Of a stretch of 58,092 bases of DNA, positions 32,361-51,168 are shown piece after piece. The DNA is taken from positions 1-58,092 of IMG/VR virus record IMGVR_UViG_3300047585_000006. One strand, 5' to 3'. The translations under genes and the position numbers were made by a program. Below the pieces are notes generated by a model. That model saw only the letters and a program-made list of their open reading frames with translations, was not told the DNA's origin and ran no database searches. Within the stretch, counting starts at the first letter, position 1, and the number at the start of each line of letters is the position of its first letter. The DNA is from a virus (taxonomy: Duplodnaviria > Caudoviricetes).

Positions 32361-32984
32361 TTAATTTCTCTTTTCTGCGAGAGCCTTAGCCCTCGTCAAG
32401 ATTTCTGTAATTCTCATGTCCACAATCAGAGATGGAATCTGGTGCCCATAAGCCCTAGTCAATGCCATTTCTAACCAAGCCCTTAACGAAAACTTTGACT
32501 TGCTAGCTTGACATGACAACTGCGAACTTTCAGGATGTGAACCGCAGCACGGGACTAGGTTTCCGGGTTGATGACCGAGCGATGAATCGATTCGGTCTAG
32601 CCCCCAGACTTTACCTTCTTCGGGAACTCTCCCACAATAAGTACATGGTCGAGCATTTCCATTCTCGTCGAGGTAGTAATGAATCGCCTCAGTCGGGTTT
32701 GAAAATCCAAAATTTCGTCCTGCTACTTTGTCTGTCCACCGCATTCCAAGATATCGTTTCCGAATAATCTTGTAATAACCGTTAGACATACTTTTGGCAC
32801 GGTTTGTAAACTCTTGCCCTGCTCTCGTGTAACTCTTGAGCGTTCCATCTTTTCTCCACTCAGCAGCCCAGTCATCTACCGCTCCGATTGAGAGATTCAA
32901 TCGTTGAGAGATTTCTTGGGGTCCTCGCTGTTGGAGCAATAATTCAAGCGTCTTTCGACGCACGTCTTCAGAATGTGCTTTCAT
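32361..32984 (-). CDS. HTH-fused HNH-type endonuclease
   Basis: N-terminal HTH-like (QEISQRLNLSIGAVDDW); CTYC, GLDRIDS..GH..GNLVPCC. Confidence 0.85.
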   Translation of the reverse strand: MKAHSEDVRRKTLELLLQQRGPQEISQRLNLSIGAVDDWAAEWRKDGTLKSYTRAGQEFTNRAKSMSNGYYKIIRKRYLGMRWTDKVAGRNFGFSNPTEAIHYYLDENGNARPCTYCGRVPEEGKVWGLDRIDSSLGHQPGNLVPCCGSHPESSQLSCQASKSKFSLRAWLEMALTRAYGHQIPSLIVDMRITEILTRAKALAEKRN

Positions 32985-33052: not shown

Positions 33053-35912
33053 CTAGCTAATAGCTGCAATTTGTTACTCGCCTTGCGGCGGGATAAGACA
33101 TTTCTGCTTACCTCTCATAGTTTATCATTTCCTATGAGATCAGACTATCGCATCACACTTTCGTGTGTTCTCTCGCTTAGTCGTTCAGGCTGCCTTGCGG
33201 CTTGCCCCTTGTTGGCATTTCAGCGTCCAAGTCAATCAGAGAGAATTTATACCGCCCCATTGTATTAAGGCGGCGTCAATCTGTCGCATACGGATGGTGG
33301 TATCAGGACCAAGAGAGGTCGTGAAATGCACCCGATACGATGTCCCACAAATTCAGATCAACAACCCGGACAGACGATTATCCGGGGATCAGCCCTTCAG
33401 GATCAGCAACAGTCGGTTCAGCATTCTGCGGGTGTTACCTAGACTGTTAGTAAGGGTTAGTCATTTCTGCTAACCTCTCATACTTACTTTTCGTATGAGA
33501 TCGGACTATTGCATCGCCTTACGGCGTCTTCTCGCTTAGTCTCTCAGCGTACCTTTCGGCTTCGCCCTCGTTGGCATTTCAGCGTTCGAGTCAATCAGAG
33601 AAGATTTTACATCGTCCAGTTTGTTAAACGATGTTGCACTTGATGTTTCGCCAATCGCCGTCACCGTAGGTGGTGTCGTTCTGGGCACCCAGATTGATTG
33701 AGAAGATTCCGTCCTTACCGAAAATGTAAGTGCGGAGTGCCGTCAGACCAGTGACGCCCTTGTAGTTCGAGGTCTTCGTTACAAGGTTCGTCTGGAAGAA
33801 ATGAACTCCGGTTGAAGGCAGTTCAATCACTTCCTCAAGGTCAACGCTGACCAGTTCGTCCATCTTGGCTTGGCCCACCGGAGTGTGCTTCAAGATGTCG
33901 ATTGGAGAGTCGTTGCTGTTATCAGCAAGCACGTCACCCAGAGCGAACGGGTGTATGTAATTGTGTTTGGGTTAAATCGGAAGATTTCCGAACCCTACAT
34001 CACTGTAGGTACGCTCTCATTGTCACCAATGAGTTCAGACTCTATCTTGACTTCTTGCGAAGTCTCTTGCGTATTAGTCGTTAGAGATGACCCACGTTTG
34101 TTCAGTGTTTGCATTTTCCCCAGCAATTCTTTTCGTTTCGCTGCGAGAGTTTCGTCAAAACCGTTGTTGTGCGGAAGCCTGATATACTGAAGGGCTATAT
34201 TCGCCTGCTCTTGTTTGATTACCAGATACGGTAGAATCCCCAAGAGCAACTGCTCACTGTTGGTTCGTCCTTTTGGACGCCAGCCATAAGCAATCTTGTG
34301 TTTCAGATTTGCACGACGGTGATGATAGTATTGTCCACCAAAGTGCTGTACGAGCCACTCCATCAAATCGAGATTCGTATTTGTGACTTCGATACGAATC
34401 GCAGTTGAATCATAAGGACTGCCGTTACTCGACAACCCCTTATGGTGGTAGATACTGAAAGTGCCTTCACCATCAAACATTCCGGCCAGATACGACCAAT
34501 ACACCTTGTCAGGTGTTTTCATAGGTTCTTTCCTCGGTATTTTCTGCTTCGATTCTAATCTAACAGATGTTCACCGATATAGCAAGATTTTTTAACGTTG
34601 GAGCCATACTCTACGCATGTGCTGCGTAGGCTTTGGTGTTAACCCCAACGAATGCTTTGGATGCTTCGTCAAACGGACGGATCGAGCGACCTGCCATCGA
34701 CTGGACAGAGTTACGAATCTGGCTCAGAGACAGTGCAGTGAAGCTGGCCGTGGTCGAAGCAGCAAGCTGCACGAGCACGGAAGCGTCAATGCTGGACGCA
34801 CCGTCGGCGGTTGCACGCACAAGTGCGGACAGGGACTCGCCCAGACGGTAAGACATTTCCTTCGCAACGTTCTCGACGGTGTTGTCAATCGTGGTAGCGA
34901 GAGACAGAGACGAGAAGTTCGCGTAATCTGCGTACTCACCAATGGTCGCGGTGGTAGTCAGAACGCTGATGGACAGAGACGATCCCACAGTCCCTTCCGT
35001 AGTCGGGTTCGTGTTCTGGGCCAGAGGGACGTACATAAACCAATTGTGTTTTGGGTTTAAGGCAGAAAGCCCCCTAGTTCACACTAGGGTCGCTCTACAT
35101 ATCACTATGCAGTTCAGACTCTATCTTTACGACACTGGCGTGTCGATGTTTGACGTATTAGTCGTTGGGGATTCCACATCTTCATCGTACTGGTGGAGAC
35201 TTTTCATTTTCTCCCACAGTTGATAACGTCGTTCAGGATTTTCAACACCTGTCATACGAACGTATTCAAGAGCCGTCACTGCCTGCTCTTGTTTAATTAA
35301 CAGGTATGGTAGGATTCCAAGAAGAAAGGCTTCTACCTTCTTGTGACCCCCTAGGCAAGACCATTTGAAGCATTGTCTTTTCCCTAGTTTTCCGAGAGAG
35401 ACTTCATAGAAATCTCCACCGAAATACCGAACCATCCATCGCATCAACCGCTGAGACGTATTGATTACTGAAATCTTAAGATTGTAATTGTAGTAAGGCG
35501 TGCCTATTTTAGTTTCAGCACAAACCCTACTGATACAAATACATCCTTCGCAATCAACCGCCATCGCTGCCATAGCGAGTTTGGTTTTATCCTGTGTCAT
35601 TATCATGATGTGGTCTTTCCTCCGTCTTGTCTACATTATAGATATTAACGGATATAGTCAAATTTATTTTTAAGTACGGGACTATCATGTAATCTCGTAC
35701 TGGTTACCAGACTTCATGGGGAGGTCGAGGCGTTCCGAACAACGTACGAACGGAGTGTTAGCCTTCAAATTCTCCCTGAATCGCTTATCGTAGTACTTCC
35801 ACCACGATGATTCTTCTGCGGAAATCGAACTTCTCCCAACGTCTGTTTACGGCAAAGTAACCGTGGATTGGGGGAGGTTGGACAACTGATTGCCCGCAGG
35901 CGAAAATGACAT
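33053..35912 (-). CDS. major capsid protein (N4-gp56-like), 7 exons: 35912-35860, 35799-35692, 35040-34642, 33957-33627, 33428-33380, 33345-33268, 33066-33053; 343 aa
   Basis: Follows the scaffold gene; exons total 1032 nt and join in frame: MSFSPAGNQLSNLPQSTV/KYYDKRFRENLK...QYEM/FMYVPL...FVGV/IHPF...CNIV/QNAEP...IPGW/TSYRVHF...DAAS/AIS*. Confidence 0.9.
33067..33267 (-). mobile_element. group I intron 6, no ORF, 201 nt
   Basis: P1 GCCGCCU/GGGCGGU; P3 UUCUCUC/GAGAGAA; P7 GACUA/UAGUC; ends AAUUG. Confidence 0.92.
33346..33379 (-). other. 34-nt core-less mini-intron (intron 5)
   Basis: P1 CCCGGAU/GUCCGGG; P10 GUCU/GGAC; terminal G; removal restores T|GG Trp and the frame. Confidence 0.8.
33429..33626 (-). 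mobile_element. group I intron 4, no ORF, 198 nt
   Basis: P1 ACAUCGUU/GACGAUGU; P10 CUG/CAG; P3 UCUUCUC/GAGAAGA; P7 GACUA/UAGUC; terminal G. Confidence 0.92.
33958..34641 (-). mobile_element. group I intron 3 with LAGLIDADG ORF, 684 nt, ends in A
   Basis: P1 CGUUGGGGU/GCUCCAACG; P10 GUAUG/CAUAC; P3 UCUUGC/GCAAGA; P7 GACU/AGUC. Confidence 0.9.
33995..34522 (-). CDS. intron-encoded LAGLIDADG endonuclease
   Basis: YLAGMFDGEGTF; ILPYLVIKQEQA. Confidence 0.95.
   Translation of the reverse strand: MKTPDKVYWSYLAGMFDGEGTFSIYHHKGLSSNGSPYDSTAIRIEVTNTNLDLMEWLVQHFGGQYYHHRRANLKHKIAYGWRPKGRTNSEQLLLGILPYLVIKQEQANIALQYIRLPHNNGFDETLAAKRKELLGKMQTLNKRGSSLTTNTQETSQEVKIESELIGDNESVPTVM
35041..35691 (-). mobile_element. 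group I intron 2 with LAGLIDADG ORF, 651 nt
   Basis: P1 GUACGAGAU/GUCCCGUAC (one mismatch); P10 UACAUGA/UUAUGUA; P3 UUUGAC/GUCAAA; P7 GACU/AGUC; ends ACAAUUG. Confidence 0.9.
35127..35606 (-). CDS. intron-encoded LAGLIDADG endonuclease
   Basis: MAAMAVDCEGCI (divergent motif); ILPYLLIKQEQA shared with the intron 3 ORF. Confidence 0.88.
   Translation of the reverse strand: MIMTQDKTKLAMAAMAVDCEGCICISRVCAETKIGTPYYNYNLKISVINTSQRLMRWMVRYFGGDFYEVSLGKLGKRQCFKWSCLGGHKKVEAFLLGILPYLLIKQEQAVTALEYVRMTGVENPERRYQLWEKMKSLHQYDEDVESPTTNTSNIDTPVS
35800..35859 (-). other. 60-nt core-less mini-intron (intron 1)
   Basis: P1 ACGGU/GCCGU; P10 UACUUU/GAAGUA; terminal G; contains an in-frame TAA. Confidence 0.75.
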
Positions 35913-35935
35913 TGTATTAACCTTTCAAATCATGA

Positions 35936-37096
35936 CTATCGACGGATGCCCATCTCCGCACGTTTGTGTGCGGCCTCAGACTCTAGTCGGTTGACGAGAG
36001 CAACGAATTTCGGGTCTTTCAATTTGGCCCGATAAACGTCAGAGGGGAGCTTGTCGATGTCAGCAAGAGTCACAGAATGGCCATCGACCGGAACGTTAGG
36101 TCCGGCGGCTGATGCGACTGAGGCATTCAGACCAGATGGTACGTGACTATGTCGCTTTACTTGCGGCGGCTCTACCGTGCCCAATCCGGGGGCGGCGGCT
36201 GCTGGAGTCTGCGATTTCGACTCCGGTTCCACGGTAACGACTGGCAGTTCCACTACAGGAACTTTAGGCGTTACAGATGCCTGTTGCACTACAGGGATGA
36301 CCTCAAGCAATCCAGCTTGGGCCAACGTGTCAAACGCGGTCTTGAAATTTGCAATGGTGGGAGCGTAATTACGCTTCGCCATCCACCGAGTTACTGCATC
36401 TCGGTTCGCCGGAGAGTCGTAGTACCCATCGGCTAGATTTACAAACTCAACATAATTCTCAACGGCACGTTGCTGGGCGATGAACTTACTCGTATCGTTC
36501 AGCGTACGGGCCAGAACTTCTGGCTTCACTCCGAAGGCCGACTCAACAATCAAGTCGCGGGCTTCAGCAGCAGTCTCGGGATTAGTCAACTTCTGAGACA
36601 GTGCGAAGCGTTCTTCGGATGTTAGATCGCGGGATTTGAACTCCGCGATGTTCTGGAACTTCTCGGCATCGTCCTTCGGTTCGTCGGAACCAAACGCCTT
36701 CTCGCGGGACATCTTCCGCATCTGGCGAACGGCCTGTTCCTGATTCTTAATCAGCTTTTCGAGCTTCTCAGCTTCCGTGCGATAGACAATGACTTGCTTG
36801 CCGCCCATAGGACGACCGTCTTCATCGCAAAGCTGGTACTCGTAACGCTGCTCCGGCAATTCTGCGGGAGCCGCTGGGGGTGTCGGCGGAACGACTGCGG
36901 CCACTGGAGCATTCTTGGCAACGAGTCCTGTGGGATCGTTCTCAAGTGCGGGTGCGTCGGGATCGGTCCCGGCGAGAACTGCGGCAATCTTGTCTTCGAC
37001 CAACTTCAATTCTGCGGCGATGCGGGCCTTCTCTGCGGCCACGGCTTCGTCATTCAGACCTTTGGCAGTCTGTGGTACTGCGGTAGTGGTGCTCAT
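35936..37096 (-). CDS. putative capsid scaffolding protein
   Basis: Between portal and MCP; helical, Pro/Ala linker, charged C-terminal helix. Confidence 0.7.
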   Translation of the reverse strand: MSTTTAVPQTAKGLNDEAVAAEKARIAAELKLVEDKIAAVLAGTDPDAPALENDPTGLVAKNAPVAAVVPPTPPAAPAELPEQRYEYQLCDEDGRPMGGKQVIVYRTEAEKLEKLIKNQEQAVRQMRKMSREKAFGSDEPKDDAEKFQNIAEFKSRDLTSEERFALSQKLTNPETAAEARDLIVESAFGVKPEVLARTLNDTSKFIAQQRAVENYVEFVNLADGYYDSPANRDAVTRWMAKRNYAPTIANFKTAFDTLAQAGLLEVIPVVQQASVTPKVPVVELPVVTVEPESKSQTPAAAAPGLGTVEPPQVKRHSHVPSGLNASVASAAGPNVPVDGHSVTLADIDKLPSDVYRAKLKDPKFVALVNRLESEAAHKRAEMGIRR

Positions 37097-49498: not shown

Positions 49499-50452
49499 CT
49501 AACCTACATTATGCATTTCAAACCAATCTAAAGTCAACCCATCAGCAGCATACTTTGTAAGGTTTCCCCTCTTAGATTTTCTTGAGGGCTTGACTTCAGC
49601 CGCGTCGTTCTCGACAGGCCACGGTAGCGTCCAGCGGTCGCTAATCTTGGATCGCCACGCGTTGCCGCGTTCATACTGATGGACGACGCAATAAGGCGTG
49701 TCGCTTCCGAACGGGTACGCGATACCGTCGCGTAGTTCCGGCGGCGTAGGAACGAGGTTGGAATTTCTTCCGATGGGTTGGTCCGGGTTGCCGTTGCAAT
49801 TCCCGATCAACCACCAACCGGAGGTCATGATGAACCCTTCGTCTGCACGAGGGATTCTCATTTCGTCCTTGAACTCCGTTCGCAAGAGAACGTTGAGTGC
49901 TGCTTGGTCGTCACCGAATCGGTCGGTCGATGATTCGTAGATGCGGGAGACGATGCGGTGTACCGCGTCGGCCTCTCCCGCGATAGTGCCAGCACAAACG
50001 ACTTCTTCGTTCTGAAGCGTGTCGAGAGTCTGCTGGCCGTAGAGTTTGACGATCCACGCGGGGTTACAGAACTCGTTGCGGTAAAGAATGAACTCGCTGG
50101 CACCGAAGAGTTTCGCGGTCTGCTGTTCCATCCACGGAGACGGATCACGTTGGAACACGACATCGCGTACATCACAGTGTATAATGTACCGAATGTCTTT
50201 CTTGTTCACCGCTAGCCAGTCACGGAAGATTCTGAATCGCTCGATGACGGTGTTGTTTCCGGTGCTGACGTAATCGACAAGTTCAAATCCGAGGCGGGTG
50301 AGGGTTTCTCGGGCTGTTCGGGTGATGTCACAGACAAAGAGGATTTTTCGTCCACGGAAGCCGGACTCGCTGAGGGAGACGGCGTAGTTTTTGAAACTGG
50401 CCCATCCGTATCCTTTGGCTGTTCCAATGACGACATCGTTCGTAGCGTCCAT
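49499..50452 (-). CDS. GT-A fold glycosyltransferase-like protein
   Basis: ERF, HCDVRDVVFQRDP, CAGTIAG, DDQAALN, VVHQYER. Confidence 0.8.
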   Translation of the reverse strand: MDATNDVVIGTAKGYGWASFKNYAVSLSESGFRGRKILFVCDITRTARETLTRLGFELVDYVSTGNNTVIERFRIFRDWLAVNKKDIRYIIHCDVRDVVFQRDPSPWMEQQTAKLFGASEFILYRNEFCNPAWIVKLYGQQTLDTLQNEEVVCAGTIAGEADAVHRIVSRIYESSTDRFGDDQAALNVLLRTEFKDEMRIPRADEGFIMTSGWWLIGNCNGNPDQPIGRNSNLVPTPPELRDGIAYPFGSDTPYCVVHQYERGNAWRSKISDRWTLPWPVENDAAEVKPSRKSKRGNLTKYAADGLTLDWFEMHNVG

Positions 50453-51129
50453 AGGCTCCTCATAATGCTGGGCGTACAAGAGTGAATCGAAGCGTATTTC
50501 GCATCAGCAAGAGTCGCACGATATTCATCATTAAAGCCATGCCGAATGCTGTCGATGCAGTGACGAGAAATACCGTTCGTCTTCATCGCATCGCCGATCC
50601 ACAAGTCGTCAGCGACAGAGGTAATCTGGGCCGACACGAGAATTCCCATTGCTCTGCTGCTCAGAAAGACACATGAGCCCGGTGCGAATGATCCCTGTAG
50701 TCCGCCAGAATAATCATGGCCTGTGAAGTCAGTCGCAAATAGTCGGTCGGGATATATGAAGGTGTCGTCATCCACGAGGCAGACGTAATCGTACTCGTGT
50801 GCGAGTGCGTACTTGCAAATCGCTTTGACCTTCTGCGAGTTCGCAGTGTACTGGTCGCTGCACGGCAAGAACACTTCGTCTGCGGAGGGTTCACGCATGA
50901 CGTTGAGGTTCGGGTTGACTCGACGCTCAGGATTCGAGCGGAGCCGGGAGCCGTAGAAGAACTTGTAGTCGATGTCGCCAAGGCCGCTGATGAACGTCTC
51001 ACGCTGGGCTGCGACACGCTCAGGCTGGTTTGTGTGGCGAAGGCCACGCTGATTCAACCAGTCGATTGTTTGATCGTCGAAAAAATAATCCAGACGATGA
51101 CACGTCTTCACTGCGACAAGAATCTTCAT
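50212..51129 (-). CDS. GT31/Fringe-like glycosyltransferase
   Basis: ILVAVKT, DQY...KV, YDYVCLVDDDTFI, FLSSRAM, ADDLWIG. Confidence 0.8.
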   Translation of the reverse strand: MKILVAVKTCHRLDYFFDDQTIDWLNQRGLRHTNQPERVAAQRETFISGLGDIDYKFFYGSRLRSNPERRVNPNLNVMREPSADEVFLPCSDQYTANSQKVKAICKYALAHEYDYVCLVDDDTFIYPDRLFATDFTGHDYSGGLQGSFAPGSCVFLSSRAMGILVSAQITSVADDLWIGDAMKTNGISRHCIDSIRHGFNDEYRATLADAKYASIHSCTPSIMRSLWTLRTMSSLEQPKDTDGPVSKTTPSPSASPASVDEKSSLSVTSPEQPEKPSPASDLNLSITSAPETTPSSSDSESSVTG

Positions 51130-51168
51130 TGCTCCTCCAGAAAAGTCAAAGGGCTTGCTCAACACTTA

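Follow-up and report, generated by a model that had tools for sequence, protein, structure and literature searches.

How can a major capsid protein be made from a gene in which a stop codon follows soon after the start? This question is raised by the window analysed here, the whole of IMG/VR virus record IMGVR_UViG_3300047585_000006 (58,092 bases, with a completeness estimate of about 60%), in which a gene similar to the major capsid gene of Tunturiibacter phage Tunturi_3 lies on the minus strand. Its open reading frame (ORF) begins at an ATG (35912-35910) with GAAAGG (35926-35921) sitting 8 nucleotides (nt) upstream, has the sequence MSFSPAGNQLSNLPQSTV and is closed by an in-frame TAA at 35849-35847, the translation up to this stop being MSFSPAGNQLSNLPQSTVTLP. 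An earlier note, made from the sequence alone, had claimed that the stop belongs to a 60-nt mini-intron at 35800-35859. The explanation that we favour, and to which we give about an even chance, is that these 60 nt represent a degenerate group I-type mini-intron without a catalytic core, which is removed from the RNA by means of a core that is probably borrowed.

The insert in codon 18 of the capsid gene

The boundaries of the insert were defined by comparison with homologues. The nearest named relative of the capsid region, Tunturi_3 (PP885686), reveals 72.7% nucleotide identity over the exons and has an intronless head protein of 343 residues, beginning with MGYTPAGNLQGNLPQSTVKFYDKKFRENL. 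With this protein (P0001) as query, tblastn displayed a gap of exactly 20 codons, from V18 to K19, and a protein-to-DNA spliced alignment placed a 60-nt insert in phase 2 at 35859-35800. Exon 1a (35860-35912, minus strand) comprises 17 codons and the GT of codon 18, inside which the insert (35800-35859, minus strand) lies. Upon its removal ACGGT is joined to GAAGTAC, giving ...LPQSTVKYYDK... as in the intronless homologues, and the first 52 residues become identical to those of an intronless relative, L004. The position of the insert, its in-frame TAA and the predicted junction STVKYYDK were all borne out by the sequence and by both kinds of alignment.

The insert might also not be removed at all, the gene being defective, translated from a downstream start or read through at the UAA with the addition of 20 residues, a version that would yield TDVGRSSISAEESSWWK-type peptides in the virion. 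The insert is indeed in frame, and the exact element is known from one assembly and from a run likely to be of the same sample (X1). However, no in-frame ATG, GTG or TTG occurs between the TAA and K19, which answers the downstream start considered in the earlier note; exon 1a encodes the same protein as L004 despite about 9 synonymous differences; a 34-nt sister insert in the same gene shifts the frame; and related genes with inserts reveal strong purifying selection and are found repeatedly across many samples. Retention of the insert is, in our view, very improbable. An intein is ruled out by the in-frame TAA, there being no continuous ORF through the insert, and a promoter scan of 35600-36000 revealed nothing within the 60 nt.

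Both pairings proposed for the 5' junction are present. The end of exon 1a, ACGGU (35860-35864, minus strand), pairs with an internal guide sequence, GCCGU (35849-35853, minus strand), to give a P1 helix of 5 base pairs (bp) which ends at the junction in a U.G pair between U 35860 and G 35853 and which appears as a hairpin in the minimum free energy fold. The loop of this hairpin, UACUUU (35854-35859, minus strand), is complementary over 6 bp to GAAGUA (35799-35794) at the start of the 3' exon (P10), and the insert ends in G. A P1 of at least 5 bp together with a P10 of at least 6 bp was found at a frequency of 0.004 in 2000 shuffles of the insert, the values for the single elements being p of about 0.10 for P1 and 0.036 for P10. 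Moving the boundary by +1 to its protein-equivalent position (exon end ACGGUU, insert end GGUGG) keeps the U and the G, but loses the U.G pair at the cleavage site. The insert carries both a P1 of the RF00028 type with U.G and a terminal G with P10; the conserved catalytic core (P3-P8/P7, J4/5, J8/7) was not found, and cmscan against Rfam (E<=1) gave no match over 35800-35859.

Two further hairpins lie in the remainder of the element. The small internal one, GGAGA (35836-35832) with UUUCC (35824-35820), spans 35820-35836 on the minus strand and exists as the earlier note had described it, but is thermodynamically unremarkable, the interior of the insert folding worse than shuffled sequences (z +1.3 to +1.9). 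The other is an addition of the present analysis. The last nine bases of the insert, AUCGUGGUG (35808-35800), pair across the loop GAAG (35799-35796) with UACUACGAU (35795-35787), that is, with positions +5 to +13 of the 3' exon, forming a 3' hairpin (35787-35808, minus strand) of 9 bp that includes the terminal G (shuffle p=0.003).

A single homologue of the 60-nt element was identified, a 54-nt insert at the same phase-2 position in contig L197 (L197:1554-1607). It has the same P1 with an identical guide sequence, and a 4-nt loop, CUUU, opposite GAAG. A hand alignment of the internal hairpins (AGGAG/UUUCU in L197, GGAGA/UUUCC in the window) revealed one double and three wobble-compatible single changes, none of them disruptive. 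The 9-bp helix between the last nine bases of the insert and positions +5 to +13 of the 3' exon is shared as well; the two columns that differ on each strand pair mutually (A-U to G-C and G-C to A-U), meaning that two of the nine pairs are compensated and none is uncompensated, and both exon changes are synonymous. By a rough estimate, reasoned and not computed, such compensation would arise by chance a few times per thousand. A two-anchor pattern search for the 60-nt element returned the L197 contig only, and exact-pattern scans of viral and metagenome contigs gave chance matches only. L197 also displays a 39-nt version of the 34-nt insert and a full 630-nt intron at residue 90.

A class of short inserts in related capsid genes

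Relatives of the capsid gene were drawn from the best 80 of 254 contigs in one search and the best 80 of 267 in another, the two sets overlapping in part and all assemblies being metagenomic. Among them, capsid genes with inserts of 33-94 nt were found at 37 loci in addition to that of the window; L003, L032, part of L061, L158, L199 and L205 were left out of this count because their alignments resembled frameshifts or homology loss. The inserts comprise 26 distinct sequences at eight sites (Tunturi residues 18, 21, 23, 31, 53, 54, 307 and 314), and all 26 follow an exon U and end in G. In the first 16 inserts, for which these boundaries held with a mean of 1.5 protein-equivalent boundaries each, the guide lies 3-16 nt inside and pairs contiguously with the exon end over 5-10 bp (P1), the junction pair being U.G; the bases that precede the guide form P10 (4-6 bp) with the beginning of the 3' exon, and P1 and P10 are jointly reached in shuffles at frequencies of 0-0.0105 for each insert. 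The smallest inserts, of 33-36 nt, have only about 17 nt beyond the guide sequence. A scan of the whole window for P1/P10 pairings whose removal restores an ORF was discarded as unspecific, with 96 matches on the plus strand and many on the minus strand compared with 52 and 26 when the sequence was reversed as a control, and short exons escaped it as well.

The 34-nt insert of the window, which the earlier note had mentioned, proved to be real and represents a second mini-intron, at residue 314. It is located at 33346-33379 (minus strand, 33379-33346) in phase 1, follows CCGGAU, has the internal guide sequence GUCCGG and ends in GUG before GGAC; it splits a Trp codon between U and GG, and its removal restores this codon. 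Its homologues in other contigs form a size series of 36, 39, 62, 71, 83 and 94 nt, the 62-94-nt forms keeping, as judged by eye, an extra stem that encloses a hairpin. Across seven homologues at this site, one P1 pair is CG in four and UA in two, another is AU in five and UA in one; two pairs have changed on both sides and 97.6% of cells are paired. A change from C to U in the exon, within a synonymous proline codon, is accompanied by a change from G to A in the guide, and in L197 an A-U pair has become U-A.

Similar changes were seen at other sites. At residue 21, P1 pairs are GC in three and CG in one, and AU in four and UG in one, and the short inserts align with full introns of 643-687 nt at the same site. 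Residue 54, where intron 1 of the window is located, holds six inserts of 45-48 nt with an invariant P1 of 8 bp and an invariant P10 of 8 bp. A third helix in this family, between the insert and positions +9 to +15 of the 3' exon, follows synonymous exon changes in the codons for Tyr and Val; two of the five pairs counted have changed on both sides, 100% of cells are paired and the observed score was not attained by any shuffle.

These data bear on translational bypassing, in which ribosomes would skip an insert that stays in the RNA. Like our inserts, the 50-nt coding gap of T4 gene 60 interrupts a phage gene with a short non-coding stretch, which has a hairpin on its 5' side and a stop close by; here, too, the junction is soon followed by a stop, the take-off stem-loop could be provided by the P1 hairpin, and a suggested origin of bypassing is stated in a passage of PMC5009743. 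Gene 60, for which the abstract of 10.1101/2024.12.09.627546 gives GGA as the take-off codon, needs matching take-off and landing codons, however, and the capsid inserts have none. To yield the homologous protein, the last exon codon would have to be repeated before the 3' exon, which by reading is the case at 0 of 26 junctions (GUU versus UGG in the window). Moreover, the TAA lies three codons beyond codon 18 and not immediately after the take-off codon, 15 of the 26 insert lengths are not multiples of three (the 11 that are each contain an in-frame stop, by reading), the Trp codon at residue 314 is split and could not be made by hopping, covariation in the P10-side and 3' exon pairings would be unneeded for a hop, and some genes would require two hops in their most abundant structural protein. 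The judgement of the earlier note that readthrough and bypassing are poor alternatives is upheld by the missing codon matches and by the insert lengths, and bypassing appears quite improbable to us.

Protein-catalysed, unconventional splicing would have a nuclease cut at two hairpins and an RNA ligase join the exons. In favour of it, each junction of the 60-nt insert is found where the 5' strand of a hairpin reaches its 3' end, the closing pair of the hairpin being a wobble pair. This symmetry is lost in the families at residues 23 and 54, in which the 3' junction is found inside a loop, and the universal exon U.G and terminal G are hallmarks of group I introns. No RNA ligase or nuclease family was detected among the 20 window ORFs scanned, most of which had no match of any kind, and we consider protein-catalysed removal improbable.

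The inserts co-occur with full introns. Four of their sites (residues 21, 23, 53 and 54) are also used by full introns, and all 38 insert-bearing capsid genes hold at least one complete group I intron, located 26-108 nt downstream in the first set and about 100-120 nt downstream in the families at residues 53 and 54. Up to two mini-introns and four full introns were found in one capsid coding sequence of 1032 nt. With inserts and introns removed, a stop-free coding sequence was obtained in 33 of 33 intron-bearing loci checked, and pairwise ratios of nonsynonymous to synonymous substitutions (dN/dS) among insert-bearing lineages are 0.03-0.14. L052 and L059 share a 94-nt insert at dS 0.19 and dN/dS 0.03, L039 and L052 share a 33-nt insert at dS 0.72 and dN/dS 0.05, and a 73-nt insert is identical in eight contigs with eight metagenome ids. 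The stop-free coding sequences, the low dN/dS and the shared or identical inserts imply that the inserts are efficiently neutralised and persistent.

Some inserts at residues 21 and 23 display further features. Three of 70-73 nt (L041:4224-4296, L059:172-242 and L025:4175-4244) contain near-consensus sigma-70-like boxes directed toward the 3' exon, TTGACA followed after 17 nt by TATACT, TAAACT or TAATAT. The inserts at residue 23 and the 40-nt inserts at residue 21 have a terminal ATG that shares the reading frame of the exon. Only these two groups have a 3' ATG, and re-initiation at such a codon was rejected as a general explanation.

Proposed removal from the RNA and the possible source of catalysis

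We infer that the 60-nt insert is removed at the RNA level and by group I chemistry. P1 would form in the capsid pre-mRNA between the end of exon 1a and the insert's own guide, placing U.G at the cleavage site, and the 3' splice site would follow the terminal G, which closes the second hairpin with positions +5 to +13 of the 3' exon. P10 would form between the P1 loop and the beginning of the 3' exon. Together, these pairings would bring the two junctions side by side, and two group I-type transesterifications would join ACGGU to GAAGUAC, producing the capsid N-terminus ...LPQSTVKYYDK.... Because the insert has no P3-P9 core, catalysis would have to be borrowed, whether in cis or in trans, the lender being one of the four complete group I introns that the transcript also contains. 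A protein or maturase encoded by an intron is not a general requirement, as L052 has only ORF-less full introns. For the inserts as a class, we hold it possible, at somewhat less than even chances, that they are non-autonomous group I introns, consisting of a guide hairpin, a 3' hairpin and a terminal G, which are spliced by the core of a complete intron in the same transcript or cell.

The nearest candidate donor would be group I intron 1 (35041-35691, minus strand; 651 nt, complete), from which the insert is separated by the 108 nt of exon 1b (35692-35799, minus strand; KYYDKRFRENL...GNQYE). In the peat RNA run X23, a contig of 100% identity joins 35041 to 35691, the circle junction of full-length intron 1, with a depth of 43.8 compared with 2.3 for the contig of the neighbouring scaffold gene. 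This junction fixes the ends of intron 1 and shows that introns of this phage are processed in nature; at such a depth, it also means that the neighbouring core is made, active and abundant.

The main rival to a borrowed core is an autonomous minimal intron, splicing alone or with the aid of exon context or of a host or phage protein. Here the comparison with the small degenerate group I introns of fungal nuclear ribosomal DNA (rDNA), namely Phialophora PaSSU and those of Arthonia and Porpidia, is instructive. They are 56-81 nt long and are described with P1, P7, P10 and a pairing between mid-intron and 3' exon (PMC3160393); like the phage inserts, which are of similar size, they have no P3-P9 core and are thought to be deletion derivatives of full introns. 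The 60-nt insert agrees with this description in its length, P1, P10 and intron-3' exon pairing, and the fungal introns are the closest known kind; the likeness is one of description only, and the host gene is a phage capsid gene and not rDNA. The fungal introns, which form one clade, occur at one or two sites in ribosomal RNA genes, have a terminal U and are depicted with P7, whereas the phage inserts occupy eight sites in a protein-coding phage gene, have a terminal G, can be as short as 33 nt and are always found with complete introns. For the fungal P7 motif, a bulged nucleotide next to G-C, the phage insert offers only GGAGA/UUUCC, which by eye contains no such motif. Autonomy is favoured by the shared P1, P10 and intron-3' exon helix, by the enclosing stem of the 62-94-nt forms at residue 314 (by eye) and by the report that the 67-nt PaSSU splices in vitro when given a long exon context (PMC3160393). 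On the other side, members of 33-36 nt, with about 17 nt after the guide, are too short to accommodate a guanosine-binding helix, shuffled sequences are more structured than the interior of the 60-nt insert, and none of the 38 capsid genes carries inserts only. We regard autonomous splicing as unlikely, if less so than the alternatives discussed above.

Concerning its origin, the 60-nt element is likely to be derived from a full intron by deletion. In local alignments of mini-introns with full introns of the same site, only the exon-constrained guide region was common, with the exception of L209, where the first 27 nt or so of a 41-nt insert are by eye nearly identical to the start of the L075 full intron at the same site. 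The inserts may be kept because the scar still blocks the site of the cognate homing endonuclease.

Several observations speak against the splicing of the 60-nt insert by a borrowed core. What stands of the mini-intron reading in the earlier note is the geometry, which recurs in 26 inserts with compensatory changes, but the insert has no room for a core, and no RNA across the junction from 35860 to 35799 was obtained, the sole run with 100% identity, X23, covering intron 1 and a bit of the scaffold gene. RNA contigs X10, X20 and X21 represent relatives without the insert (X10 and X20 under 90-95% identical), so that spliced RNA is indistinguishable from that of an intronless relative, and X10 and X20 may come from intronless relatives. 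The 5-bp P1, taken alone, is unremarkable (p about 0.10), and the 6-bp P10 shares the top two pairs of the 3' hairpin, so that both cannot form fully at the same time. The family of the 60-nt element has two members only, and its shuffle control (130/500) is therefore without power. In L197, the nearest full intron is about 215 nt from the residue 18 insert, and a duplex search between mini-introns and co-resident full introns revealed no tether (z -2.3 to +1.5). The co-occurrence of inserts and full introns could simply reflect intron-rich lineages, and we know of no natural case in which a group I core acts on the P1 of another intron.

Engineered group I cores are reportedly able to excise internal segments in trans (PMC2532722, PMC4094466). 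Such trans-excision-splicing ribozymes and 'spliceozymes' share with the proposed mechanism that a group I core removes an internal RNA segment not its own; they are artificial and the ribozyme supplies the guide, whereas in the phage inserts the guide is part of the excised segment and the core would be borrowed. Group III and mini group II introns of Euglena plastids are streamlined descendants of self-splicing introns, about 100 nt long, which occur beside full-size relatives and are suspected of using trans-acting parts; they belong to a different intron class with a different chemistry, and the resemblance is an analogy only. Canonical phage group I introns (RF00028, including introns 1-4 of the window) share with the inserts the P1 with exon U.G, the guide, P10, the terminal G and an early in-frame stop, but the inserts have neither core nor ORF and measure 33-94 nt compared with 198-915 nt.

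Other introns of the gene, its surroundings and implications

The 1032-nt coding sequence of the capsid gene in the window is divided into seven exons by six intervening sequences, all on the minus strand. Intron 1 matches Rfam RF00028 with 26.6 bits and contains an ORF (35606-35127) that resembles the LAGLIDADG ORF of intron 2, with no Pfam match. Exon 2 (34642-35040) is followed by group I intron 2 (33958-34641; 684 nt, 28.9 bits), whose ORF at 34522-33995 matches Pfam LAGLIDADG_1, and by exon 3 (33627-33957). The ORF-less intron 3 (33429-33626; 198 nt) has a P1 of 8 bp and is bounded by an exon U and a terminal G; the stretch gave no RF00028 match in Rfam, and it is assigned as a putative group I intron by this P1, U.G and terminal-G geometry and a repeat-like similarity to intron 4. 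Exons 4a (33380-33428) and 4b (33268-33345) flank the second mini-intron. The ORF-less group I intron 4 (33067-33267; 201 nt) reaches 15.9 bits, the scores of introns 1, 2 and 4 all being below the gathering score of 50. The last exon (33053-33066) has only 14 nt, ending in CA GCT ATT AGC TAG, that is, four codons, the first of them split, and the TAG. It restores ...DAASAIS* as in Tunturi_3, and would escape gene callers.

In intron 4, P1 and the exon have changed in concert: GCC GCC U pairs with GGGGCGG in the window and L061, and GCU GCU U with GGAGCAG in L039. Several full introns with boundaries defined by homology end in A (or C) and not in G, namely that at 33958-34641 in the window, which ends in ...CACAAUUA before CAUACAC, and others in L039, L040 and L041 (residue 187), L075 (residue 53), L027 (residue 190), and L016 and L019 (residue 212). 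In these, the terminal nucleotide may be other than G, or the splice product may be slightly different. At L187:2705-3035, the spliced alignment breaks into short pseudo-introns and text similar to a group I core is present (GAGAGACTAAGCGA... and GCAATAGTCCGATCT); the region of residues 181-230 or so is probably a full intron that was mis-modelled.

In a Pfam scan, the window was found to encode a terminase large subunit, an SU10-type portal, a scaffold-like protein, a Prim-Pol and a family A polymerase. Tunturi_3 is described, in a passage of PMC11924767, as a podovirus infecting an acidobacterium; a term search of the accessible text of that paper did not find the word 'intron'. Directly downstream of the capsid gene, a free-standing ORF (32361-32984, minus strand) has an HTH_23 match below the curated cutoff and a C-terminal part that is rich in Cys and His and, by eye, HNH-like; it may encode a homing endonuclease. 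Further away, a 466-residue protein of this peat phage (44999-46399, minus strand) carries a strong Ice_binding domain (PF11999, E 8e-60). Two long ORFs at 49499-50479 and 50212-51165 (minus strand) overlap by 268 nt in different frames, neither with a Pfam match, and could be a frameshift or another interrupted gene.

No report of short, core-less group I-type introns in phage genes was found in the open-access literature. If spliced, the inserts of 33-36 nt would be the smallest group I-type introns known, and the class would be the first of its kind in phage protein-coding genes. Gene callers split or truncate these capsid genes, and annotations of soil phages miss them as a consequence. 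The inserts represent a natural test of whether a group I core serves foreign P1/P10 substrates, and they bear on a possible common origin of gene 60-type coding gaps and intron remnants as well as on how introns become dependent on shared machinery. If a borrowed core is indeed at work, a natural system of ribozyme parasites and helpers would exist in these phages, corresponding within group I to the transition from self-splicing introns to introns that depend on shared trans-acting machinery.

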